A stretch of DNA of 64,000 nucleotides from assembly GCA_963674965.2 (NCBI GenBank), contig CAXXFL010000004.1:370221-434220 (forward strand). Direction: 5' to 3'. This document shows, piece after piece, positions 1 to 31,479 of the stretch (positions are counted from its first letter, which is position 1; every line of letters starts with the position of its first letter). Origin of the DNA: a bacterium. Lineage in GTDB: Bacteria > RBG-13-61-14 > DATKZS01. The notes under the pieces were generated by a model. It was not told the DNA's origin and searched no databases. It saw only the letters and a list, made by a program, of their open reading frames with translations. Position numbers and translations under genes: made by a program.

Positions 1-1782
1 GTAGGGGTTGTAGGTGGAGGTTTGGGCTCCGAAGGGGGAGTATTCGGAGCGCATGAAGACGGCGCCGTTGGACTCGAACTCGGTGAGGGAGCCGAGACCG
101 TCGGTGAGGGGGAAGGCGGCACCCCCGGCGGAGTCCATCCCCTGGAGGAGGTCGTCGACGCCCGGGCCGTGGACGTAACGATTCACCACCGTCGCCCCGT
201 CGAACGACTGCACCACGTCCTCGCCGTCGTAAAAATAAATCGTCTCCTCCGTCCCAAGGTCCTTCAGCACCCGCCGCCCAAGCGCGTCGTAGACATACTC
301 CACCACCGTGGTCGAGCCTTCCTTGACCTCCACCAGCATATCGTCGGCGTCATAATAATAATCACGAGCCTCCACCGTCGTGGTACCGTTAATCACGTCC
401 CGGGAGGACATGGCGCCGGCGTCATCGTACTCGTACCGGACCACGTAATCCGCCGCCTCCGACGTGTTCCCGTCCGCGTCCATGTCATACCAGATCGCCT
501 CCAGCCGGTTCATGCCGTACGCGTCGTAAAAGTACGTCTCCTCCTCCAGGTCGAAACCGCCGTCAACCTCGGTCACGGACAGGATATTCCCCAGGGTATC
601 ATACTCGTACTCCAGCGTCGAGCCGTCCCAAGTCCCCGCCCTCGAAAGCCGATAAAACGAATCGTACTCGTACTCGACCCGCACCGACGAACCGCTCAAG
701 GTCCGTACCTGCGCCGTTCGCTGCCCCTTGGCGTTGGCGCCCGAGTCGTATTCGTACTGATACCTCGACAGCGTGGTACTCCCGTCCTTGTGATGGATGT
801 CCGTCAATCTCCCCTGCTCGTCGTAACCGTATTCCGTCGCCGACGACGCCGTCACCCCGTCCGCCCGGTACCGCGTAACCTTGCTCCGCATGCCCTGCTC
901 ATCGTACTCGTACTCCGCCACCGTCGTGCCGTTCCTGCTCACCGTTTGCAAAGACCCGTCGTCGTAATACCCGTACTCGACCGTCTCCCCGTCCGCCGTC
1001 GCCATCCTCGTCACCCGGTCCCCGGCGTCATACTCATAATACACGGTCTCCCCGACCGTCGACCCGCAAGCCGCGTCCGCGCAAACCGTCTGCTCGACCG
1101 ACGAAACCCGAAAGTACTCGTCATACTCGTAATCCAGCGCCGTGCCCCCAACCTTGTCGTCCTTGACGTAATCGATCCGCCCGCCAATATACCCCACCTC
1201 GATCGTCCTCAGAAGCGACCCCTTGTTCGCGCAGCTCGAACCGGCCCAATACTTCCTCTTCCAAGGCCGGTTCATGCCGTCGTATTCATAAGACACAACC
1301 GAGTTGCCCGCGTTCACCACGCACGTCACCCGTCCGATCTCATCGTAAGTATAGCTCGCCGTCGGGTCCCCCGCGCTCGCGTCCTCCCGGATCACCTTGT
1401 CCATCCGCCCGAAGTCGTCGTACGTGTACAGCGTCTCCAGCGCCGCGCCGGCCGGTTCCGCCGTGAAGCCGACCAGGTTGCCGACGCCGTCGTAGTCGAA
1501 GGTGGTGATGGACGCCGCGCTTCCGATCTCGACCTCGGCCAACCGCCCCCTGGCGTCGGACAGGTACTTCGCGTCCCTGCCGTTCACGTCGTTGACCGTC
1601 ACCAGCGTCGCCGTGGCCGTGGTCCCGCCGATGGCCTCGGTCCCGTAGGTCACGCCGGTGTTGAAGCTCACGCCGTCCACCTCGGGCAAAGTCACCTCGG
1701 TCATCCTGCCGATATCGTCCCAGGTGGCCTGCACTTTCCTGTGCGTGTCGCCGTTTAGCATGACGGACGCGGGCAGACCCAA
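1..1782 (-). CDS. Rhs/YD-repeat protein, N-terminally truncated core fragment, runs off the left edge
   Basis: Not in the ORF track because there is no stop in the window. Manual translation from TTG 1782 / ATG 1761 gives YD repeats (FDYDGVGNL, YTYDDFGRM, YEYDEQGMRSKVTRY); bases 1-915 are near-identical to the cores at 2930-3843 and 10600-11384. Confidence 0.88.
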   Translation of the reverse strand, partial: MGLPASVMLNGDTHRKVQATWDDIGRMTEVTLPEVDGVSFNTGVTYGTEAIGGTTATATLVTVNDVNGRDAKYLSDARGRLAEVEIGSAASITTFDYDGVGNLVGFTAEPAGAALETLYTYDDFGRMDKVIREDASAGDPTASYTYDEIGRVTCVVNAGNSVVSYEYDGMNRPWKRKYWAGSSCANKGSLLRTIEVGYIGGRIDYVKDDKVGGTALDYEYDEYFRVSSVEQTVCADAACGSTVGETVYYEYDAGDRVTRMATADGETVEYGYYDDGSLQTVSRNGTTVAEYEYDEQGMRSKVTRYRADGVTASSATEYGYDEQGRLTDIHHKDGSTTLSRYQYEYDSGANAKGQRTAQVRTLSGSSVRVEYEYDSFYRLSRAGTWDGSTLEYEYDTLGNILSVTEVDGGFDLEEETYFYDAYGMNRLEAIWYDMDADGNTSEAADYVVRYEYDDAGAMSSRDVINGTTTVEARDYYYDADDMLVEVKEGSTTVVEYVYDALGRRVLKDLGTEETIYFYDGEDVVQSFDGATVVNRYVHGPGVDDLLQGMDSAGGAAFPLTDGLGSLTEFESNGAVFMRSEYSPFGAQTSTYNPY

Positions 1783-1802
1783 AAAGTAACTATCTCCCCT
1801 TT
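1781..1802. repeat. Half-site of the Rhs junction motif (AAGTAactatcTCCCC)
   Basis: Resembles the element arm AAGTActctgTCCCC and lies between the stop at 1807 and the start of the Rhs fragment. Confidence 0.5.
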
Positions 1803-1806
1803 CCGT

Positions 1807-2181
1807 TCAGTCAATTGGCGGTTTGAACTCGAACTCTTTTTTGCCGACGGGAATTAACTGGAGATCGCCGAATTCAATGGTTAAGAAATGTTCGCAATCA
1901 TCCGGCGTCCAAATTTCGGCACGATATCCATTATCCAATAATGTCACTTTAATATCAGTAATCCAATCCCAACTCTGTCTATCTTTCATAATGATTTCAT
2001 ATGAGGTGACTTCCTGAAAAAGTAATATTCCAGGCTCCGGTATATATCCTTCAGCGTATTCCCAGTCGAAGTTGACGTTCTTGAGATGAAGAGCAATCGA
2101 TTTTTCTTGTTTGTCAATGATGGTTTTCAGTATTCTTCCATCATGAAAACAGCCATAATCCTTTATAATTTCAATTCCCAT
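1807..2181 (-). CDS. Putative immunity protein (124 aa)
   Basis: AT-rich small ORF with GGAGG RBS, directly downstream of an Rhs toxin tip; FHDG motif near the N-terminus. Confidence 0.6.
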   Translation of the reverse strand: MGIEIIKDYGCFHDGRILKTIIDKQEKSIALHLKNVNFDWEYAEGYIPEPGILLFQEVTSYEIIMKDRQSWDWITDIKVTLLDNGYRAEIWTPDDCEHFLTIEFGDLQLIPVGKKEFEFKPPID

Positions 2182-2257
2182 CTAAGTCCTCCCATTAATT
2201 GTCGAGAAAACATCTGAAGTAACTAAAACATTCTGACTTACTATAGAATCCTCACTT

Positions 2258-3868
2258 TTAATAAACGAAAACGAACGATGGTGAAGGGGATACCATGAAC
2301 GCTGATGAACCACCTAACATATAGGGACTTATCATTGGGGAAAATAATAGCTGGGGAGTCGCTGGATTTCCAAATTGATCTACTCCATATATTTCTTTTA
2401 ATGCCCATTCCCTATCCATGCGTTCTTTTTCTCTATTTGAGAGTGCTTCATTCCACGAGCAAGCCAATCTATTGAGCGTCGATGGGGGTGACAAATCAAC
2501 TTCATCTCCAGGGCGGAGATGGTCGTCTCCGTCATTAAAATGCCAATGATCCTTTCCACCAGGTGCTTTCGGGCCTTTATCAGGATTTGCAGGATGGTAA
2601 TCAAGATAGTCATTAGTGTATGCGTTTCTGTATCTCATGCCGTTCGGATGTTTATGGGTCCAATCGGTTCTCCATTCAGGTCCCAAACCATTCGGGCCAC
2701 TGGGCAATCTCATTCTGGTGAGACCAAACGCATCGGTGAACTGGGCGGGGGAATTGTCAACGTAACTGTATTTGTTCGCATAAGTAATTGGAAGCACCAA
2801 AATCCCGGCAAATTTATCCTCCTGCACGAATCGTCTTTGTTCGGGGCTGTAGTAGCGGGAGCGGTAGAACATGAGGCCGGTTTCGTCGTCGTGTTCGCGG
2901 CCGGTGAAGCCGTAGGGGGACTGGAGGGAGTAGGGGTTGTAGGTGGAGGTTTGGGCGCCGAAGGGGGAGTATTGGAAGCGCATGAAGACGGCGCCGTTGG
3001 ACTCGAACTCGGTGAGGGAGCCGAGACCGTCGGTTAACGGGAAGGCGGACCCGCCGGAGTTTTCGCCCTGGAGGACGTCGTCGACGCCCGGGCCGTGCAC
3101 GCAGCGGCCTACCACCGTCGCCCCGTCGAACGTCTGCACGATGTCCTCGCCGTCGTAGAAGTATATGGTCTCGTCCGTCCCCAAGTCCTTCAGCACCCGC
3201 CTCCCAAGCGCGTCGTAAACATACTCCACCACCGTGGTCGCGCCTTCCTTGACCTCCACCAGCATATCGTCGGCGTCATAATAATAATCCCGAGCCTCCA
3301 CCGTCGTGGTCCCGTTAATCACGTCCCGGGCCGACATGGACCCCGCGTCGTTATAATCGTACCTCACCACGTAATCCGCCGGCTCCGACGTGTCCCCGTC
3401 AGCGTCCATGTCGTACCAGATCGCCTCCAGCCGGTTCATCCCGTAACTATCGTAAAAGTATGTCTCCTTCTCCAGGTCGAAGCCACCGTCAACCTCGGTC
3501 ACGGACAGAATATTCCCCAGGGTATCATACTCGTACTCCAGCGTCGAGCCGTCCCACGTGCCCGCCCTCGAAAGCCGATAAAACGAATCGTACTCGTAGT
3601 CGACACGCACCGACGAGCCGCTCAAGGTCCGCACCTGCGCCGTCCTTTGCCCCTTGGCGTTGGCGCCCGAGTCGTATTCGTACTGATACCTCGACAGCGT
3701 GGTACTCCCGTCCTTGTGATGGATGTCCGTCAATCTCCCCTGCTCGTCGTAACCGTATTCCGTCGCCGACGACGCCGTCACCCCGTCCGACCGGTACCGC
3801 GTTACCTTGCTCCGCGCGCCCTGCTCATCGTACTCGTACTCCTTGACTTTACTTATCATGGATGTCAC
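2258..3868 (-). CDS. Orphan Rhs module with His-rich putative nuclease/RNase tip
   Basis: Rhs-associated core (YGFTGREHDDETGLMFYRSRYYSP...DAFGL) followed by AT-rich tip THKHPNG..YLDYH..KDHWH; core homology starts near 3843. Confidence 0.85.
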   Translation of the reverse strand: MTSMISKVKEYEYDEQGARSKVTRYRSDGVTASSATEYGYDEQGRLTDIHHKDGSTTLSRYQYEYDSGANAKGQRTAQVRTLSGSSVRVDYEYDSFYRLSRAGTWDGSTLEYEYDTLGNILSVTEVDGGFDLEKETYFYDSYGMNRLEAIWYDMDADGDTSEPADYVVRYDYNDAGSMSARDVINGTTTVEARDYYYDADDMLVEVKEGATTVVEYVYDALGRRVLKDLGTDETIYFYDGEDIVQTFDGATVVGRCVHGPGVDDVLQGENSGGSAFPLTDGLGSLTEFESNGAVFMRFQYSPFGAQTSTYNPYSLQSPYGFTGREHDDETGLMFYRSRYYSPEQRRFVQEDKFAGILVLPITYANKYSYVDNSPAQFTDAFGLTRMRLPSGPNGLGPEWRTDWTHKHPNGMRYRNAYTNDYLDYHPANPDKGPKAPGGKDHWHFNDGDDHLRPGDEVDLSPPSTLNRLACSWNEALSNREKERMDREWALKEIYGVDQFGNPATPQLLFSPMISPYMLGGSSAFMVSPSPSFVFVY

Positions 3869-3874
3869 CAGATC
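3858..3874. repeat. Half-site of the Rhs junction motif (ATGGATGTCaCCAgATC)
   Basis: 15/17 match to the reverse complement of the left arm at 11389 (ATGGATGTCCCCATATC); lies between the stop at 3876 and the Rhs core start. Confidence 0.65.
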
Positions 3875-3875
3875 A

Positions 3876-4109
3876 CTAACGCGCTTCTAATTCAGCAATT
3901 TGCCAATAATATGTGCAGCCTTTCTCAGAATTTAGCGTATTCAATCTATTCACTTCTAATTTGGCTCTTTCTAATGTTCGTACAAGCTTTTTAATTGTAA
4001 AATAAGTTCGCATGCCAGGCTTATGATCATAGTGATCTACTCGTACTATTGCATATACCTGATTCGCTGAAGTTTTATCCGTTGTATTCATGATGCTATC
4101 CTCATTCAT
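3876..4109 (-). CDS. Small hypothetical protein, candidate immunity; paralog of 4260-4475
   Basis: Shares VYA..R..H, ERA..EV.RLN..N..G..YYW with its neighbour. Confidence 0.65.
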   Translation of the reverse strand: MNEDSIMNTTDKTSANQVYAIVRVDHYDHKPGMRTYFTIKKLVRTLERAKLEVNRLNTLNSEKGCTYYWQIAELEAR

Positions 4110-4259
4110 TATTCAGCATACTTGGGTAAAAGCGTTAGCCTCATATAAAGTCCAACAATCGTGATTATAAATCCGCTATATTTACAGGCCGGATATCACG
4201 TTCTCTCACATTTGCACATACTGTCGAGATTATCTGCATTTCTCGCACTAAATTAATAC

Positions 4260-4475
4260 TCACCGCTCTTCCAGTCGAGTATATCCCCAATAGTAATTAC
4301 TGCCGTTTTCTGGATTAGTAGCGTTCAACCGCTCAACTTCAGACTCGGCTCTTTCCATAGTCCATACAATTTTTTCTATTGCAAGTTTCATCATAAATTC
4401 CCCATCGATTGATAAATGAACAATCCGCATTACCGCATATACCGGTTCAACCGGCCTACGATTCTTTTCTTTCAT
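4260..4475 (-). CDS. Small hypothetical protein, candidate immunity; paralog of 3876-4109
   Basis: Same shared motifs; AGGA RBS; downstream of a toxin remnant. Confidence 0.65.
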   Translation of the reverse strand: MKEKNRRPVEPVYAVMRIVHLSIDGEFMMKLAIEKIVWTMERAESEVERLNATNPENGSNYYWGYTRLEER

Positions 4476-4582
4476 AAATAATTCCTATCATTTTTGCTCA
4501 ATCCCTGTAAAACCAATAAGCCAATCAATTTTTCCCGGTGAAATGAGGGCTTCGATTTATATTAGCGTTCAACTTGCTCTTG

Positions 4583-4705
4583 CTAATCCCATGATGAGTC
4601 AGTCATGGTGCCCAGAAACTTACGTGTAACCGGATCATGCACGCCACCGCTATGATCGAACAGTACATTATCTGAAGGACCACGGCCCCAGTACTTCTTA
4701 ATATG
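4583..4705 (-). pseudogene. Start-less 40-codon remnant, probably a toxin C-terminus
   Basis: HIKKYWGRGPSDNVLFDHSGGVHDPVTRKFLGTMTDSSWD* begins at the edge of the repeat element at 4707. Confidence 0.5.
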
Positions 4706-4843
4706 AGATCTGGGGACAGCATACTTATCTCGCCTTTATTTACGGCTAGAGAGGTGTTTATAAATATTCCATCAATATTCATCGTCGAAGAACCCAGGTG
4801 ATTCGGAATGTGTCAAGCAAAATGAGACACGCCTTTCCTGAAT

Positions 4844-5860
4844 TTAGTGTGGCAAACTGTTTGTTTCCTCCGGTTTCTCCGGTGGGTTGATCCACGCTTT
4901 GCCGGGCAACTCCGGCGCCGTCGGCGGTCTTTTCACGAAGCGCTCCGGGTTTTTTTCATAGGCGTGGTCGAGCGTTTTTTGCCGGGCGGCCACGATCTCG
5001 CTCGCCATTCCGTAATGGACCATCTCGGGCGTCATCAGGCCGATCCCGGTGTGCCGATGCTCGCGGTTGTACCAATCGAAAAACTTCACGCAAAAGGCCC
5101 TGGCGTCCTCGATGGAGCCGAACCGGCTCGGGAACTCGGGCCGGTACTTCATGGTCTTGAACTGGCTTTCCGAGTAGGGGTTGTCGTCGGACACGTGGGG
5201 CCGCGAGTGGCTCTTGGTCACGCCCAGGTCGGCCATCAAGAAGGCCACCGGCTTTGATTTCATCGAACTCCCCCGGTCGGCGTGGATTGTGAGTTGTCCC
5301 GGCTCGATCTCCTGTTTTCGGATGCTGTCCCCGATCAGGCGGCGGGCCAGCTCGGCGCTCTCGCGGCGGGCGATCATCCAGCCCACCACGCAGCGGCTGA
5401 AGATATCCATGATCACGTAGAGCTGGTAGCAGGTCCATTTGGCCGGTCCCTTGAGCTTGGTGACGTCCCAGGACCAGACCTGGTTGGGGGCCTCGGCCAG
5501 CAACTCGGGTTTTTTGTATCGGGGATGCCGAAGCTGGTTGCGCCGCTCCCTGACTTCCTTTTCCGAGTCGAGGACGCGGTACATGGTGCGGACCGAGCAC
5601 AGCCATGTCCCCTCGTCCAGGAGCGTTGCCCAGACCTCGCGGGGGGCCTTGTCGGCAAAGCGCTCGGAGTGGAGTCCGTCCAGCACCCGGCGCCGCTCGT
5701 CCTCGCTCAACGACCTTGCCGGCTTGGCCGCGCGCCTCGGCGGCGGAGGCCCGAAGGGAATTTTAGCGCGGCGGTCAAACGTTGCCCGCGACAGGCCCAG
5801 GGCCTCGCAGGCGGCCTTGACGCCGACCCGGGGAGCGGCCGTGCTTGCCGATTCCATCAT
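4844..5860 (-). CDS. IS3-family transposase OrfB (DDE/rve core)
   Basis: WSWDVT, IHADRGS, DNPYSESQFKTMK motifs. Confidence 0.95.
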   Translation of the reverse strand: MMESASTAAPRVGVKAACEALGLSRATFDRRAKIPFGPPPPRRAAKPARSLSEDERRRVLDGLHSERFADKAPREVWATLLDEGTWLCSVRTMYRVLDSEKEVRERRNQLRHPRYKKPELLAEAPNQVWSWDVTKLKGPAKWTCYQLYVIMDIFSRCVVGWMIARRESAELARRLIGDSIRKQEIEPGQLTIHADRGSSMKSKPVAFLMADLGVTKSHSRPHVSDDNPYSESQFKTMKYRPEFPSRFGSIEDARAFCVKFFDWYNREHRHTGIGLMTPEMVHYGMASEIVAARQKTLDHAYEKNPERFVKRPPTAPELPGKAWINPPEKPEETNSLPH

Positions 5861-6396
5861 TCGCTCTCTTCGCCGGGCGGCTTGGCCAGGGGTATCCCCA
5901 GCAGATCGGCAACTTTTTTTTGGAAGTCGATTATCATCTCGGCCTGTTCGAGCCGCTTTTGGAGCTTCCGGTTCTCGCGCTCGAGGCGGGCCACTTCATC
6001 GGCCAGCGGGTTTTTGGCCTTGGGCTTGCGGCCCCGCTTTACGGGCGAAAGCGCTTTCAAGGCCCCCTCGTCCCGCTGCTTGCGCCAGGCCGTCAGGTGC
6101 GACGAATAAAGGCCCTCCCGGCGCAGCAGGGCGCCGACCTCGCCATGCCCCGAGCAGGCGTCGGCCTTCCCGAGGATTGCGAGCTTGTAAGCCGCGGTGA
6201 AGCGCCGCCGGGCGGGCTTTTCCGGGACCTCCGGGTCGGGAAGAATGATCGGCGCCCCTCCCCGCTCGGGCCGCTTGGCCGGAGTGTCCTCCGGCTCGGC
6301 CGTCCCGGTTGGGGAGACTCCGGTCGCCCTACGGGCTCCCTCCGTCTCCCCAACAATCCCTGCCTTCTTCCTGTCTTCATCCATCTCTCTATACAT
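5857..6396 (-). CDS. IS3-family OrfA (HTH plus coiled coil)
   Basis: RRRFTAAYKLAIL...LLRREGLYSSHLTAWRKQ; A8G slippery run at 5921-5913 leads into the open -1 OrfB frame. Confidence 0.9.
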   Translation of the reverse strand: MYREMDEDRKKAGIVGETEGARRATGVSPTGTAEPEDTPAKRPERGGAPIILPDPEVPEKPARRRFTAAYKLAILGKADACSGHGEVGALLRREGLYSSHLTAWRKQRDEGALKALSPVKRGRKPKAKNPLADEVARLERENRKLQKRLEQAEMIIDFQKKVADLLGIPLAKPPGEESE

Positions 6397-6503
6397 CCTA
6401 ATACCTCCCCCGCCCTACAGTAATTTAACATAGGGGAAGTGTCTCATCTACGTTGGCACAGAGGGATTTTCATAAATTAAGTACTCTGTCCCCAGAACTC
6501 CCA

Positions 6504-7427
6504 TCAACGGTCGTCATATTTATTGAGCAATTCCAATATCTCAAGTTCACCACGATTCTTCGCAATGTCAAAAGCATTGTTACCTTTGTCGTTGCGGATT
6601 GTCGGGTCGGCGCCGTTCTCCAATAGTATTTTCACCATTTCGATGTGTCCCCAGAAAATGGCACGATTAAGCGGCGTATCTCTTTTAGAAGTTAGGGCAT
6701 CAATTTCAGCTCCTTTTGATATTAGATATTTGGCCACTCCAGCTTTGCCATAGGAAGCAGCATGGTGTAAAGCCGTGTATCTTGAAGAGCTGTTGCAAAA
6801 GTGTATGTCGGCGTTATGTTTTATCTGATCAGCAATTCTTTTTCTTTCAAAAAATCTATCCGCGATCTCTGGAGAAATTGTATTTCCAAGAACAATATCA
6901 TACACTCCATTGTCGTTTAAGTTGAGATAGTAATCTATCAGTTCCCTATTATCATTGCGAACGGCATCCGCTAATGGATGATGTCCTCCTAAGTTATGAA
7001 TATCAGCGCCATAAGTAAGAAGTAGATTTATCATTTTTGTGTCACAAGCTGTTGCATAATTTATCGGACTTTCAAATTGGGCGCAAACATCGGGATTTGC
7101 ACCACTTTTCAATAATTTTTCAGCTTCTTTATAATTGCATGCAATTACAGCTTTATGCAGGGGCGATAAGGGAGTGGGAATTATATCAGAACCCTCTATT
7201 TCTTTTAACGACTCATTCTCACATGTACGATATTTTTGTTGAACTCTTGCTTCGTACAAAGGGCTCTCAGGACTGATACGCATGTGGTTTTTATAATTTT
7301 TTAAAAATGTGCTTGCGGAGAAAAATATAATGATAATAAATACCATGAAAACAACTGAAATAATGGCCAGGGTTTTGCCCCGATGCATCCAAAAACTTGT
7401 TTTTGAAGTTGTATTTAGGTTGTTCAT
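6504..7427 (-). CDS. Ankyrin-repeat protein with N-terminal TM segment, putative immunity
   Basis: SPLHKAV, TALHHAASYG, TPLNRAIFWGH repeats; starts 1 bp after the Rhs stop. Confidence 0.85.
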   Translation of the reverse strand: MNNLNTTSKTSFWMHRGKTLAIISVVFMVFIIIIFFSASTFLKNYKNHMRISPESPLYEARVQQKYRTCENESLKEIEGSDIIPTPLSPLHKAVIACNYKEAEKLLKSGANPDVCAQFESPINYATACDTKMINLLLTYGADIHNLGGHHPLADAVRNDNRELIDYYLNLNDNGVYDIVLGNTISPEIADRFFERKRIADQIKHNADIHFCNSSSRYTALHHAASYGKAGVAKYLISKGAEIDALTSKRDTPLNRAIFWGHIEMVKILLENGADPTIRNDKGNNAFDIAKNRGELEILELLNKYDDR

Positions 7428-7428
7428 A

Positions 7429-8328
7429 TCACTTGAATCCTAAATCATAGCAGGCTTGGCAGTAATCGCTACATGCTTCGGCACAGTCAGTTGTTTGAGG
7501 GTCTAGTCCTGCTTGAACTCCCTTCCGATTTGCCAAGATATCTCCTGCGCATTCTTCTGGTTGTGTATCAAGATATCTATACTCTTGTAGATATCCATAC
7601 ACTTCTGATCCTAACACCCCCGTAACTCCATACTTTTGTGTAACTTCACAGTGAGCATTACAATGAGCATATTCATCCCAATTCATCCCACCCTGTTTTT
7701 TCAGTTCATCCTCAAAGTATGTTATTAATGGACCTCTTTTATTTCCTCTATTTGCTTTTCGCTCTTTCGCTAAATCCCGCTTAAAATTGCGTTTAGCACG
7801 CCAAAAATGTAGCGGGATTAATACCGCAAAATCAAGTAGAGCTAAAGGGGCCTCTGTAAATGGATTATGTCTTCGTTCACCTTCCGGGTCAATATAAATT
7901 ATTGGATTATTATAGACGTAAAGATATTTATCCACATAGGTAGCAGGGTCACTGATTTCTCCCCTCCACTTATCCTCCTGCACAAACCTCCGCTGCTCGG
8001 GGCTGTAGTAGCGGGAGCGGTAGAACATGAGGCCGGTTACGTCGTCGTGCTCGCGGCCGGTGTAGCCGTAGGGGGACTGGAGGGAGTAGGGGTTGTAGGT
8101 GGAGGTTTGGGCGCCGAAGGGGGAGTATTCGGAGCGCATGAAGACGGCGCCGTTGGACTCGAACTCGGTGAGGGAGCCGAGACCGTCGGTGAGGGGGAAG
8201 CCGGCGCCCCCGGCGGAGTCCATCCCCTGGAGGAGGTCGTCGACGCCGGGGCCGTGGACGTAGCGGTTCACCACCGTGGCCCCGTCGAACGTCTGCACGA
8301 TATCCTCGCCGTCGTAAAAATAAAGCAT
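7429..8328 (-). CDS. Short orphan Rhs module with Cys-rich helical tip
   Basis: Rhs core ending YIDPEG; tip contains EYAHCNAHC and DILANRKG. Confidence 0.85.
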   Translation of the reverse strand: MLYFYDGEDIVQTFDGATVVNRYVHGPGVDDLLQGMDSAGGAGFPLTDGLGSLTEFESNGAVFMRSEYSPFGAQTSTYNPYSLQSPYGYTGREHDDVTGLMFYRSRYYSPEQRRFVQEDKWRGEISDPATYVDKYLYVYNNPIIYIDPEGERRHNPFTEAPLALLDFAVLIPLHFWRAKRNFKRDLAKERKANRGNKRGPLITYFEDELKKQGGMNWDEYAHCNAHCEVTQKYGVTGVLGSEVYGYLQEYRYLDTQPEECAGDILANRKGVQAGLDPQTTDCAEACSDYCQACYDLGFK

Positions 8329-8408
8329 TGATTGTTTTTAGCTCCTCCACTTGAAAAAGGGCCGTTCAATACGATTGGCGTCAGGAACGTTCAGCCCGCG
8401 GCTTCGCC

Positions 8409-8442
8409 GCCCACGCAATATTGAAGACAATATTGCGTGGGC
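8409..8442. repeat. Perfect 15-bp inverted repeat at a module boundary
   Basis: GCCCACGCAATATTG-AAGA-CAATATTGCGTGGGC. Confidence 0.85.
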
Positions 8443-8487
8443 CACCCCGCAGATTGTCCTCTCAATGAACTGGTAGAACACTGCCAG

Positions 8488-9069
8488 TCACAAAACGGAT
8501 AGCCTCTTCAGATCGTAAATATCAATTTGTTTTTCCACAAAGATATCTTCTAAAGCATCCGGCCCATTTTTTTCAGCAAAATCAATTTCCTTTTCAGAAA
8601 TAGGAACCGCTAATAACCACGCTACAGTCTTTTTTTCAAAGTACATTGTTTTCAATGTATCTTCCCATAAAAATGGAGGGACGAATAAAAAATGCTTCAT
8701 TGTTGGGGACAAGTTATACATTTTAAGTACGTCCGGGAAAATAGCCCCCGGGTAACAAGGCCATTTTGAGTTAATAATGCAAAATGCTGCCGTCCCTAGC
8801 GCAAGATCAAAGTCCGTGAATTCCGAGTAGCAAGCTCCCACAATTTCAAGTCGTGTTGGATACTCTAAGCCTTGCATGATAAGCGGCGAGTCAGACAATC
8901 CGATCGTTGAATAAGACGACACGCCTTTTTCCGGATGATTAGGGCAAGTTAGTATGTCGACAAAATTCTCCTCCGCATCATCCAGATGCCGACGTACTGT
9001 TGATTCCCTCCCGAAAGCTTGTACTAATGCCCTAGTGATTTCTAAGTTCTCTTCGGAAATGGCGCGCAT
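8488..9069 (-). CDS. Suppressor-of-fused (SUFU) domain immunity protein
   Basis: SYSTIGLS, RLEIVG, PGAIFPDV, PPFLW, VAWLLAVPISEKE motifs typical of bacterial SUFU. Confidence 0.85.
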   Translation of the reverse strand: MRAISEENLEITRALVQAFGRESTVRRHLDDAEENFVDILTCPNHPEKGVSSYSTIGLSDSPLIMQGLEYPTRLEIVGACYSEFTDFDLALGTAAFCIINSKWPCYPGAIFPDVLKMYNLSPTMKHFLFVPPFLWEDTLKTMYFEKKTVAWLLAVPISEKEIDFAEKNGPDALEDIFVEKQIDIYDLKRLSVL

Positions 9070-9093
9070 AGTTATCCCCCCTGATGTGGTCTG

Positions 9094-9132
9094 TTATGGA
9101 ATTTCGCTTCTATGATTACGGTTTGAACTTGT
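9094..9132 (-). pseudogene. 12-codon remnant resembling the end of a GH-E/HNH-type nuclease toxin
   Basis: TSSNRNHRSEIP* between the repeat element and the SUFU RBS; very short, so weak. Confidence 0.35.
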
Positions 9133-9133
9133 A

Positions 9134-9262
9134 GATCTGGGGACAGCATACTTATCTCGCCTTTATTGACGGCTAGAGAGACGTTTATGAATATTCCATC
9201 AATATTCATCGTCGAAGAACCCAGTTGATTTTCAAAAATTAAGTACACTGTCCCCAGAACTC
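9134..9262. repeat. ~129 bp inverted-repeat element, copy 2, intact
   Basis: Arms GATCTGGGGACAGCATACTTA and TAAGTACACTGTCCCCAGAAC; internal palindrome ATGAATATT-CCATC-AATATTCAT. Confidence 0.9.
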
Positions 9263-9300
9263 AATATAGGTGATCTAAATTCTCCCATTAGGCCTGACCC

Positions 9301-9894
9301 TCACTTCTTCCTGTTAGTAAATTTGGGATCATCTACATTTAATGAAGGTCCGGATATGCGATAATCATCCTGCAAATGATAAATATCCCCCTTTTCATCA
9401 ACCATCCAGATATCTAATCCACTATCCGCGTCTAAATTTGCCACCGCATATGCATTCCATTTGTCAACTTCCCTGACGCATTTATAATAAGATGGTAAAG
9501 ACTCCTTTAGATTCCATACGCTTGGCATTAAAGTATCATTGTAGAAAATTGTATATCTCCCTTTGTTTGTAATATACCCCATGTCAGCAAAATTTACAGC
9601 GAAATATCCCTTTTCTTTTCTATAAATCAGTTGCTTAGAATGAACTGAACGCAATTCACGTTGCGCCTCAAGACCATTTCCTCGATAGTTGAAAGCCTTG
9701 TAATTATCAATGTTGAGTGCAAACAGAAAAGTTGCAAGAATTATTAATAGGTAGGATAGCGTCAATTGAAAAATTGTCATGCTATACTTCCTGTTAATAC
9801 TTTTTATCCATATCATCAAATCTTTCATGCCATACCTTTTACTTTCTAATGTTCTATTAACTCGGTTTATTAGGGATATGCCGGCTAATCCCAC
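9301..9894 (-). CDS. Pilin-like membrane protein in the immunity position (true start may be downstream)
   Basis: TM helix, EAQRELRSVHSKQ..Y and AVANLDADSGLDIWMVD, paralleling the pilin at 26893; no prepilin G/FTxxE site. Confidence 0.6.
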   Translation of the reverse strand: MGLAGISLINRVNRTLESKRYGMKDLMIWIKSINRKYSMTIFQLTLSYLLIILATFLFALNIDNYKAFNYRGNGLEAQRELRSVHSKQLIYRKEKGYFAVNFADMGYITNKGRYTIFYNDTLMPSVWNLKESLPSYYKCVREVDKWNAYAVANLDADSGLDIWMVDEKGDIYHLQDDYRISGPSLNVDDPKFTNRKK

Positions 9895-11384
9895 GGCTTA
9901 CCTGTTAGGAATAGAGGGCCGAGCTTCCACCATGGGTCAAGTGAAAAAGATGTTCCATCGTCAAAGTTAACGTATGTGCGATCATGAGATCCACCTGAAT
10001 AACCAGGCACTTGGTGTGCATTAATCGTGACGTCATCAGGGAAATATCCCCAATTATTCATGAAATCAGCAAGGTCCTGTGAGTACACACTGCACTGAAA
10101 ATCATCATCGATCCCGCCATCACACTTGCCCCCAAAAGCGCAGTCAACGACCACAAAGTAATTTAAAGGCCCGCTGAACACTAAGCCATTTAGAGCTTTT
10201 AGTGGTGGAGGCACATCTGATGTCAACATCGATCTAAAGAAGTTGTTTGCAGGACCCCACATCCAATAGCGTGGGCTAGTAATTGACCATATTTGCATTA
10301 AAGCAACGGATTCAGCAGCAACCCATACTTTATCCTTAGCAGCCCATGCTTTATCCTTCAAATTCATTAAATATTTAATATCTCGCCATATATAATCATT
10401 CGGGTTAAACTGATATTCTCTTCTTCCTGTTGGGTCAATTAGATTGACTGGATTATTGTCAACATATTTGTATTTGTTAACGTAGGTTCCAGGATCATTA
10501 ACTTCTCCCCTCCACTTATCCTCCTGTACAAACCTCCGCTGCTCGGGGCTGTAGTAGCGGGAGCGGTAGAACATGAGGCCGGTTTCGTCGTCGTGCTCGC
10601 GGCCGGTGAAGCCGTAGCCGCCCAGGCCGATGGAGTTGGGATCGTAGGTGATGGTTTGGTCGCCGAAGGGGGAGTATTCGGAGCGCATGGTGAGGGAGCC
10701 GTTGGCTTCGAGTTCCGTGAGGGAACCGAGCCCGTCGGTCAGGGGGAAGGCCGACCCGCCGGAGCCGACGTCCTGGAGCACGTCATCTATCCCCGGCCCG
10801 TGCACGTAGCGGCCTACCACCGTCGCCCCGTCGAACGACTGCACGATATCCTCGCCGTCGTAAAAATAAATCTCCTCGTCCGTCCCCAAGTCCTTCAGCA
10901 CCCGCCGCCCCAAAGCGTCGTAGACATACTCCGCCACCGTGGTCGCGCCTTCCTTGACCTCCACCAGCATATCGTCGGCGTCATAATAATAATCCCACGC
11001 CTCCACCGTCGTGGTCCCGTTAATCACGTCCCGGGAGGACATGGCGCCCGCGTCGTTATAATCGTACCGCACCACGTAATCCGCCGCCTCCGACGTGTCC
11101 CCGTCAGCGTCCATGTCGTACCAGATCGCCTCCAAGCGGTTCATGCCGTAACCGTCGTAAAAGTATGTCTCCTTCTCCAGGTCGAAGCCACCGTCAACCT
11201 CGGTCACGGACAGAATATTCCCCAGGGTATCATACTCGTACTCCAGCGTCGAGCCGTCCCAAGTCCCCGCCCTCGACAGCCGATAAAACGAATCGTACTC
11301 GTACTCGACCCGCACCGACGAACCGCTCAAGGTCCGCACCTGCGCGGTTCGCTGCCCCTTGGCGTTGGCGCCCGAGTCGTATTC
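9885..11384 (-). CDS. Orphan Rhs module with putative Cys-His-Asp enzyme tip
   Basis: Rhs homology starts at 11384 (EYDSGANAKG); core ends LIDPTG; tip has CSVYSQDL, SHDRTYV, LDPW. The track's extension to 11558 reads through the repeat element. Confidence 0.85.
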   Translation of the reverse strand, partial: EYDSGANAKGQRTAQVRTLSGSSVRVEYEYDSFYRLSRAGTWDGSTLEYEYDTLGNILSVTEVDGGFDLEKETYFYDGYGMNRLEAIWYDMDADGDTSEAADYVVRYDYNDAGAMSSRDVINGTTTVEAWDYYYDADDMLVEVKEGATTVAEYVYDALGRRVLKDLGTDEEIYFYDGEDIVQSFDGATVVGRYVHGPGIDDVLQDVGSGGSAFPLTDGLGSLTELEANGSLTMRSEYSPFGDQTITYDPNSIGLGGYGFTGREHDDETGLMFYRSRYYSPEQRRFVQEDKWRGEVNDPGTYVNKYKYVDNNPVNLIDPTGRREYQFNPNDYIWRDIKYLMNLKDKAWAAKDKVWVAAESVALMQIWSITSPRYWMWGPANNFFRSMLTSDVPPPLKALNGLVFSGPLNYFVVVDCAFGGKCDGGIDDDFQCSVYSQDLADFMNNWGYFPDDVTINAHQVPGYSGGSHDRTYVNFDDGTSFSLDPWWKLGPLFLTGKPWD

Positions 11385-11388
11385 GGAA

Positions 11389-11569
11389 GATATGGGGACA
11401 TCCATACTTAATTCGCTGTTTGGCAAATTATCTCCTCCGAGTGCCCGGGATAATATTTCGTTTCCCGCTTGTATTAAGCTATTCAAAAACCGGCCTCTAT
11501 AACTATCATTGTCGATATTGACGTGATATACCGGAAACGTCCAATAATTTAGTATCATATCCCCAGATC
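11389..11569. repeat. ~180 bp inverted-repeat element, copy 3, same arms with a different interior
   Basis: GATATGGGGACATCCATACTTAATT ... AATTTAGTATCATATCCCCAGATC. Confidence 0.8.
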
Positions 11570-11726
11570 CCGCGCTATCTTAATATCTCTGAACTATAAG
11601 GGACCCATTTAGCTATAGAGGCGGCTATGTGTAACCTGTTTGAGAATCGCTCCGGGAGTAGCTGTCCCTGGCGGGAAGCCCGAGGTTTTTAGAAAAACCG
11701 TATGATGCGTCCGCCGTACGGCGGCT

Positions 11727-30308: not shown

Positions 30309-31479
<1,171 letters not shown>

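Follow-up and report, generated by a model that had tools for sequence, protein, structure and literature searches.

Orphan Rhs toxin-immunity arrays reportedly exchange their modules by homologous recombination, and integrons use attI and attC sites, a tyrosine recombinase and directly repeated hairpins. HUH enzymes form a 5'-phosphotyrosine and leave a 3'-OH. A nick-extend-rejoin model has been proposed for the amplification of bacterial interspersed mosaic elements (BIMEs) by TnpA-REP (PMC3333891), the transposase of repetitive extragenic palindromic (REP) sequences. In TIRtrons, a Y1 HUH transposase gene (TIRYT) lies between terminal inverted repeats (TIRs) with GGGGWSAS (Di Nocera et al. 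2013, PMC3733652). TIRYT was equated by Quentin et al. (2018, PMC6006769) with TnpA-Y1 subclass 2.1, the second largest TnpA-Y1 subclass, present in ~15% of the strains of their survey. These were the only papers found that name TIRYT, and their supplements may say more on TIR flanks. Here we examine the Rhs array in a 64,000-nucleotide stretch of bacterial DNA (the window, G000:C4:370221-434220, where G000 is the genome under study and its contigs are labelled C1-C7), in which an earlier note had taken a short motif at module junctions for the site of a dedicated toxin-immunity cassette system. Judged by its sequence, this motif is the TIR of TIRtron-family elements, and its copies in the window are non-autonomous miniature inverted-repeat transposable elements (MITEs). 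The outer ends of the TIRs are breakpoints of deletions and duplications, and the anatomy of an immunity stop, a TIR and a beheaded Rhs frame recurs in other phyla.

The genome scan suggested in the earlier note was run with an arm matrix trained on 32 arms, all from outside the window. At a threshold of at least 18 bits, it detected 62 sites genome-wide, and a single block-shuffled genome contained none. The later locus and stop-distance counts exclude two of these sites, which lie inside coding paralogues on C1. The window holds three two-armed elements (4706-6499, 9133-9261 and 11388-11570), and their six arms, scoring 24-36 bits, confirm the paired arms that had been claimed. The conserved element ends are AGATCT...AGAACT, with the true ends shifted one base from those given earlier, and the TIR core in the arms, GGGGACAG/C, fits the published TIRYT GGGGWSAS (GGGG[AT][CG]A[CG]). 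Two single arms had been claimed as well. That at 3858-3875 is a degenerate half arm within a remnant (outer half 13.7 bits, whole 6 bits), while that at 1781..1802 on the minus strand was rejected at -5 bits and looks like the ribosome-binding region before the longest Rhs fragment. After merging, 40 elements at 25 loci were counted in the genome. The same ends occur on two MITE families (129 bp and 183 bp) and on 340-360-bp internal deletions of the TIRtron, and the MITEs are short, non-coding and multi-copy and have their TIRs in common with the autonomous element. Full copies of the 129-bp element, which folds strongly as a panhandle (z -6.2), are found on C1, C2, C3, C4 and C7 at 87-98%; homologues of the 183-bp element, which has no significant fold (z -1.1), are found on C1, C3, C4, C5, C6 and C7 at 78-87%. 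Aligned flanks of MITE copies revealed no target-site duplication, as an HUH enzyme is expected to make none. Local hopping between the two 129-bp copies of the window was rejected, their mutual identity (94-95%) being lower than that to distant copies (97-98%).

The genome contains five Y1 matches, one of which, C7:625993-626743, is framed by the same arms on both sides (PF01797, 47 bits) and encodes a transposase of 221-226 aa, the one intact TIRYT of the genome. Such a transposase flanked by the same arms had been called for in the earlier note, and this intact TIR-Y1/HUH-TIR copy agrees with its suggestion that an HUH transposase serves MITE-like arms in trans; the tyrosine recombinase offered as another possible actor is not needed. 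The motifs NHVH (HUH), WQ, YVEMNP (Tyr) and FSSA were read by eye against the published Table 1, and the ~80-aa C-terminal tail had no match to a helix-turn-helix (HTH) model in an NCBIfam scan. Membership in the REP/REPIN family of REP-associated tyrosine transposases (RAYT) was rejected, as the arms are non-palindromic TIRs and the transposase scores 73.9 bits against NF047646, under the cut-off of 80. Among 80 related transposase loci from many phyla, an arm was found left of the gene in 70, right of it in 65 and on both sides in 58. The neighbours of these transposases (118 open reading frames (ORFs) scanned) are mostly unrelated to toxins, with a clear Rhs core at 4/80 loci. At L118:305-1228 (G000:C7:507.8-508.7 kb), 1.7 kb from a TIR cluster, a RAYT-like ORF with an HTH-like tail has HUH and catalytic Tyr positions that look degenerate; at L139:2032-2820 (G039:C44), two Rhs modules enclose a gene for a Y1 transposase that lacks the TIR pattern used in the search; and in two genomes (L135:138 and 1496, L009:3519-3545) the far arm ends in a common different terminal motif, not in a full TIR.

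The scars at TIR ends are of three kinds. Tip stutters, i.e. abutting perfect tandem duplications, were found at 18/47 arms in the genome and 31/142 in related loci, compared to 2/3000 random sites, 0/51 ends of IS3, an insertion sequence (IS), and 0-1/47 at offsets inside the element. Stutter units measure 8-32 nt in the genome and up to 64 nt in related loci, begin 1-4 nt outside the conserved end and always run inward (start -7 to -10). Longer tandem duplications from the same start point comprise 340 bp on C1 and ~141 bp in G072. Where a flank has a paralogue, homology usually ends 0-3 nt from the TIR, matching the stutter start, and the paralogue continues. The breakpoints thus coincide with the motif, as the earlier note had predicted, at the outer ends of TIRs, and clean insertions were found for 0/13 testable TIR elements (18 examined) versus 8/12 testable IS3 copies (24 examined). 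On the partner DNA, the position of each junction is arbitrary, and no conserved base was seen there by eye in the comparison of flanks and paralogues. Among the other victims at TIR tips are an FGE-sulfatase paralogue, pieces of IS elements, further repeats and the TIRtron itself; since these are non-toxin genes and repeats, the effect of TIR ends is not toxin-specific. At L107:3004-6288 (C2:268.5-271.8 kb), tandem FGE-sulfatase/MopE paralogues each have a MITE after them, with a beheaded partial copy at a TIR tip. The differing C-termini of these paralogues presumably resemble the targets of diversity-generating retroelements. At C1:1464728-1464927 (L106), the isolated orphan head of another Rhs family is cut on its 3' side by a MITE of the 183-bp family.

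The same anatomy recurs among 21 Rhs-proximal arms in eight other genomes: five of these arms adjoin beheaded Rhs frames (in records from Syntrophales, Planctomycetales, Phycisphaerae and Armatimonadota), two are joined to a toxin tail of 30 codons (a single event) and five follow an immunity-type stop at a distance of 1-36 nt. In G072, a before/after view of a TIR-anchored deletion, not of an exchange, is available. At L130 the TIR element is followed by 1.1 kb, a full 2629-aa Rhs gene and an immunity gene; at L127 and L128 the same element (93-97%) is fused to the last 30 codons of the paralogous toxin, with ~8.9 kb missing, 3 nt of the old flank retained and the immunity gene intact. In the case of G047, co-oriented 'solo arms' every 1-3 kb were considered as a cassette array and rejected, as they are really 57-60-bp TIR doublets between housekeeping genes (10/20 regions analysed). 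Several long ORFs at L140-L144 of that genome end inside the TIR of such doublets, as if the tip had replaced the stop codon.

Within the window's array (Table 1), modules are organized as core-toxin-immunity with cores 88-93% identical, and the assembly no longer contains a full-length parent of this Rhs family. Three of the six toxin-frame starts lie at TIR outer ends, one at a TIR remnant and two have no arm. At the 11388 arm, Rhs-core homology breaks off 2 nt away and paralogues run on beyond the break. The 40-aa remnant at 4705 gave an empty result in a word-index protein search; a full HMMER search returned 17 homologous proteins, all matched near the C-terminus and 6/17 with an Rhs core match. 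For the 20-aa frame at 9132, with no Pfam match and no database support, the reading as a toxin tail is plausible. Of the decapitated toxin frames that the earlier note had placed after each copy of the motif, those at 11388 and 4705 stand, that at 9132 is plausible, that at 3842 adjoins a remnant and that at 1781 has no arm. Immunity-type stops, said to precede four of the sites, were measured at 39 nt (9301) and 4 nt (6504) from an arm. The ORF at 9301..9894 had no family match at cut-off. The remnant at 3842-3875 is 97% identical to C6:487149-487182, which adjoins a transposase remnant, contains a 24-bp match within a tip stutter on C1, and turns its inner side to the Rhs core, unlike the other arms of the window.

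Table 1 Features of the Rhs array and its mobile elements (window positions; -, minus strand;., no strand given)
Position	Strand	Feature	Basis and remarks
11388..11570	.	MITE family 2 element, 183 bp, non-autonomous	Arms 31 + 24 bits
9885..11385	-	Beheaded Rhs core + toxin tip	TIGR03696 match
9301..9894	-	Immunity-type ORF	Stop 39 nt from arm; position and low GC; immunity role putative
9133..9261	.	MITE family 1 element, 129 bp, non-autonomous	Arms 36 + 35 bits
9072..9132	-	20-codon putative toxin tail remnant	Sequence; stop 2 nt before SUFU start; toxin identity putative
8488..9069	-	SUFU-family immunity gene	PF05076, E 3e-27
8330..8450	.	REP-like repeat unrelated to TIRs	Marks orphan Rhs start at 8328; 28 loci in genome
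7429..8328	-	Orphan Rhs core + toxin tip with own start	TIGR03696 match
6504..7427	-	Ankyrin-repeat immunity-type gene	Pfam Ank; stop 4 nt from arm
4706..6499	.	Second 129-bp TIR element, IS-split	Arms 36 + 35 bits; unsplit twin C2:1176-1304
4804..6465	-	IS3-type element, two ORFs, rve	Pfam; clean insertion, 3-bp target duplication; 24 full copies
4583..4705	-	40-codon polymorphic-toxin tail remnant	Starts at TIR outer end
3876..4475	-	Two small paralogous immunity-type ORFs	No known family
3842..3875	-	Collapsed TIR remnant, 34 bp	Between ORF stop and Rhs core
2258..3842	-	Beheaded Rhs core + toxin tip	TIGR03696 match; junction with remnant

A toxin start at 8324-8328, overlooked in the earlier note, has no arm and lies at the REP-like repeat, and the same junction is found at three orphans on C2. 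Orphan Rhs starts bounded by REP-like repeats, not TIRs, and with identical breakpoints characterize the arrays at C2:79-100 kb and C6:735-750 kb as well as window 8330-8450; another Y1-served repeat family may have made these junctions. An ATG within the right TIR of the 183-bp element opens a frame (9885-11558) that runs through the element and continues in the reading frame of the Rhs core and toxin tip. MITE frames are not systematically fused in frame to toxin remnants: such a fusion is present at 11388 and 9133 and absent at 4706. The small paralogous ORFs lie at 3876-4109 and 4260-4475, and their Atlas neighbours are unnamed clusters, some of them viral. Farther away, a short ORF at 30380-31027 presumably resembles the N-terminus of a group II intron reverse transcriptase.

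Based on these observations, the best reading, to which we assign a probability of about 0.6, is that one-ended HUH nick-and-rejoin erodes the flanks of TIRs and that selection spares the immunity genes. As the scars suggest, TIRYT would nick one strand 1-4 nt outside the TIR and remain bound to the element-side 5' end, which would then be joined to any available 3'-OH. A 3'-OH extended by polymerase would give a tip stutter or a longer tandem duplication, one farther out in the flank would give a deletion anchored at the TIR, and a distant one would relocate the element, at times together with DNA from its flanks. The TIRYT at C7:625993-626743 would act in trans on the MITEs. These would have landed several times in the window's Rhs array, Rhs loci being sinks for mobile DNA, and repeated TIR-anchored deletions would have stripped the toxin heads. 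Selection, assumed to keep immunity genes whole and to let silent toxin heads go, would limit this erosion to just past the immunity stop on one side and just before the next immunity gene on the other. The outcome would be a disarmed, compacted immunity array rather than a cassette shuffler.

Several points weigh against this interpretation. Selection on immunity genes is an assumption, and the nick is deduced from scars; no biochemistry or activity was found in the literature searched on TIRYT or subclass 2.1. The 3842 junction lies on the inner side of the remnant and is not accounted for by an outer-end nick. Closeness to stop codons is not specific to TIRs, with stop-near arms at 13/54 versus 11/51 IS3 ends genome-wide. 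A search for empty sites in 30 relatives, none of the same genus, gave only weak matches to the REP-like repeat. Two of the 13 elements testable for clean insertion are ankyrin twins and not independent, and the thresholds of the TIR and IS3 tests were slightly different. Finally, the G072 loci are paralogues and no time series, because they are 94-97% identical.

A broader role could be considered in which polymorphic-toxin loci preferentially recruit TIR elements, and in which these elements also import immunity modules or spread them, through one-ended transduction or tip capture, acting as a semi-domesticated array editor. Among the genomes behind 50 of the 80 transposase loci, 27 have Rhs cores (best 150 of 158 matches), and with one fixed arm pattern 19/220 TIR loci in these genomes lie within 3 kb of an Rhs core where 1.2 are expected (16-fold), and 18/103 Rhs loci have an arm where 1.3 are expected. 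An arm is as near at only 2/141 ParE toxin genes (hand count), arms are present at each of the three Rhs loci of G065 and at the two of G048, and 25/29 Rhs-proximal arms point their outer end to the Rhs module, with one more arm mis-scored at 1 nt distance. This orientation bias is unexplained by nick-and-rejoin erosion; part of it stems from very small doublets in which decay has put the far arm beyond the reach of the pattern. The enrichment is uneven, however, with 12/29 in five genomes picked as Rhs-rich and 7/191 in the other 22, and G007, with 53 arms, has one at 0/5 Rhs loci (hand count). In the genome under study an Rhs core is found no farther than 5 kb from 2/25 TIR loci (p 0.12) and from 2/28 IS3 copies. 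Enrichment of the motif, which the earlier note had proposed to test at toxin/immunity boundaries, thus holds near Rhs loci across genomes and is weak in the note's own genome. Ordinary IS elements (rve and IS110 transposases) are enriched near Rhs cores too (6/127, 0.8 expected, 7.5-fold). As the difference between TIR and IS is not significant (p = 0.20), mobile DNA in general gathers at Rhs loci, and TIRs may have a preference of their own for them. The 4706 MITE has been copied, along with a large part of the ankyrin gene, to a second Rhs graveyard at the starts of C2 and C7 (98-99.7% identity), in a shared block that ends at the TIR tip. This would fit transduction, and equally gene conversion crossing over in the invariant MITE end. 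The contig starts themselves (C2:1-17400 and C7:1-2237) resemble the two sides of a single Rhs graveyard, riddled with IS elements and paralogous to the array of the window. The literature searched contained nothing linking HUH/TIR elements to Rhs. Overall, we regard recruitment as unlikely. The same doubtful standing applies to its general form, namely that TIRYT transposases act as one-ended HUH editors and that polymorphic-toxin loci across phyla recruit their TIR tips, with deletion of toxin heads and spread or capture of immunity genes as the outcome; if true, TIRYT editing would be a general route to orphan-immunity arrays.

Alternatively, TIR insertions could merely patch damage, with a break or deletion in the Rhs array sealed by a one-step TIR insertion, or host repair deleting DNA beside a hairpin without any transposase. 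An Rhs array, as a nuclease-toxin locus, would be under pressure to shed its toxins. The 129-bp element forms a strong fold, none of the testable TIR insertions was clean, and one-step IS insertion with deletion and without target duplication has been reported (PMC11708052). Patching nevertheless sits poorly with stutters and long duplications that start at a fixed 1-4 nt outside the tip with strict polarity, with deletion joints retaining the same 1-3 nt, with an element already upstream of an intact gene in G072 and with the lack of a significant fold in the 183-bp element, and we consider it quite improbable. Still further down stands the model of the earlier note itself, a dedicated integron-like system in which copies of the motif would recombine to cut out and insert toxin-immunity modules. 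In its favour, three independent elements and one remnant mark module boundaries within 8 kb, in an anatomy known from other phyla. The motif, expected to be confined to toxin boundaries, is dispersed over 25 loci, 23 of them beyond 5 kb of an Rhs core; 5/32 Rhs cores of the genome have an element within 5 kb and 27/32 do not, and arms are absent from the 77 kb on either side of the two largest Rhs arrays (10 and 6 cores), which show identical orphan starts instead. Nor are there sites confined to the array, one per cassette, with a fixed crossover: two of six toxin starts lack an arm, toxin breakpoints differ at each site, the same ends behead non-toxin genes, and modules are bounded by whole two-armed MITEs rather than by directly repeated half-sites. 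The sole before/after pair found is a deletion. Across the array, assembled contigs of two runs from one sample agree with the assembly (they bridge 11388 and 6499, and also 4706, 9133 and 9261, there with <31 letters on one side). The joints listed include no alternative one at an arm, with the limit that contigs cannot show circles or rare joints. The more striking dedicated cassette system is therefore not supported and appears very improbable.

Elements of this type have been described before, and IS elements are familiar agents of adjacent deletion. TIR-anchored flank deletion together with a recurrent Rhs anatomy represents a new, testable behaviour. Neither of the two was found in the literature, including a 2026 Rhs/poly-immunity preprint and Bertels and Rainey 2011 in their accessible parts, in a search that mostly left subscription papers outside. 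It would give Rhs arrays a route besides core recombination to lose toxins and keep immunity genes. The locus and its comparisons predict where TIRYT would cut (1-4 nt outside the TIR) and which three kinds of product it would leave (stutters, long duplications and flank deletions). With substrates ready, its function is directly testable.

Compared to published TIRtrons, the elements described here have the same Y1 HUH gene in TIRs, GGGGWSAS, the NHVH/WQ/Y---NP/SS motifs and dispersed TIR dimers and clusters. TIRYT proteins (subclass 2.1) are delimited by NHVH, W[EQ], a YIELNP-like motif, SS and ~238 aa, with which we take the 221-226 aa found here to agree; an HTH-like C-terminal extension is published, and the ~80-aa tail here has no NCBIfam HTH match. 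In their accessible text, the TIRtron/TIRYT papers describe no cut site, fixed-length MITE families, tip stutters, flank deletions or Rhs link. An integron likewise has a short repeated site between genes, but here no integrase is needed, sites are dispersed, pairs are inverted and there is no fixed crossover on partner DNA. With orphan Rhs core recombination the locus has core-toxin-immunity modules in common, and the genome's other arrays share identical orphan starts, as core recombination would give; in the window, TIR ends have instead cut three starts, each at a position of its own, and at two of these no core is left for recombination. IS-mediated adjacent deletion (IS150, IS903; PMC11708052) also proceeds from an element end and possibly by stepwise growth, although IS150 and IS903 are DDE elements with target duplications, and in this genome 8/12 IS3 insertions and 0/13 TIR elements are clean. 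A further comparison is the REPtron with TnpA-REP (RAYT), its BIMEs and its REPINs (PMC3333891, PMC3116915), in which one transposase serves many non-autonomous, clustering doublets by 5'-phosphotyrosine chemistry, with a nick-extend-rejoin amplification model and suggested flank capture. In contrast to the REPtron, there is no GTAG-tagged hairpin here, recognition appears to be of the non-palindromic TIR, the nick would fall just outside the element, and flank deletion is the commonest scar.

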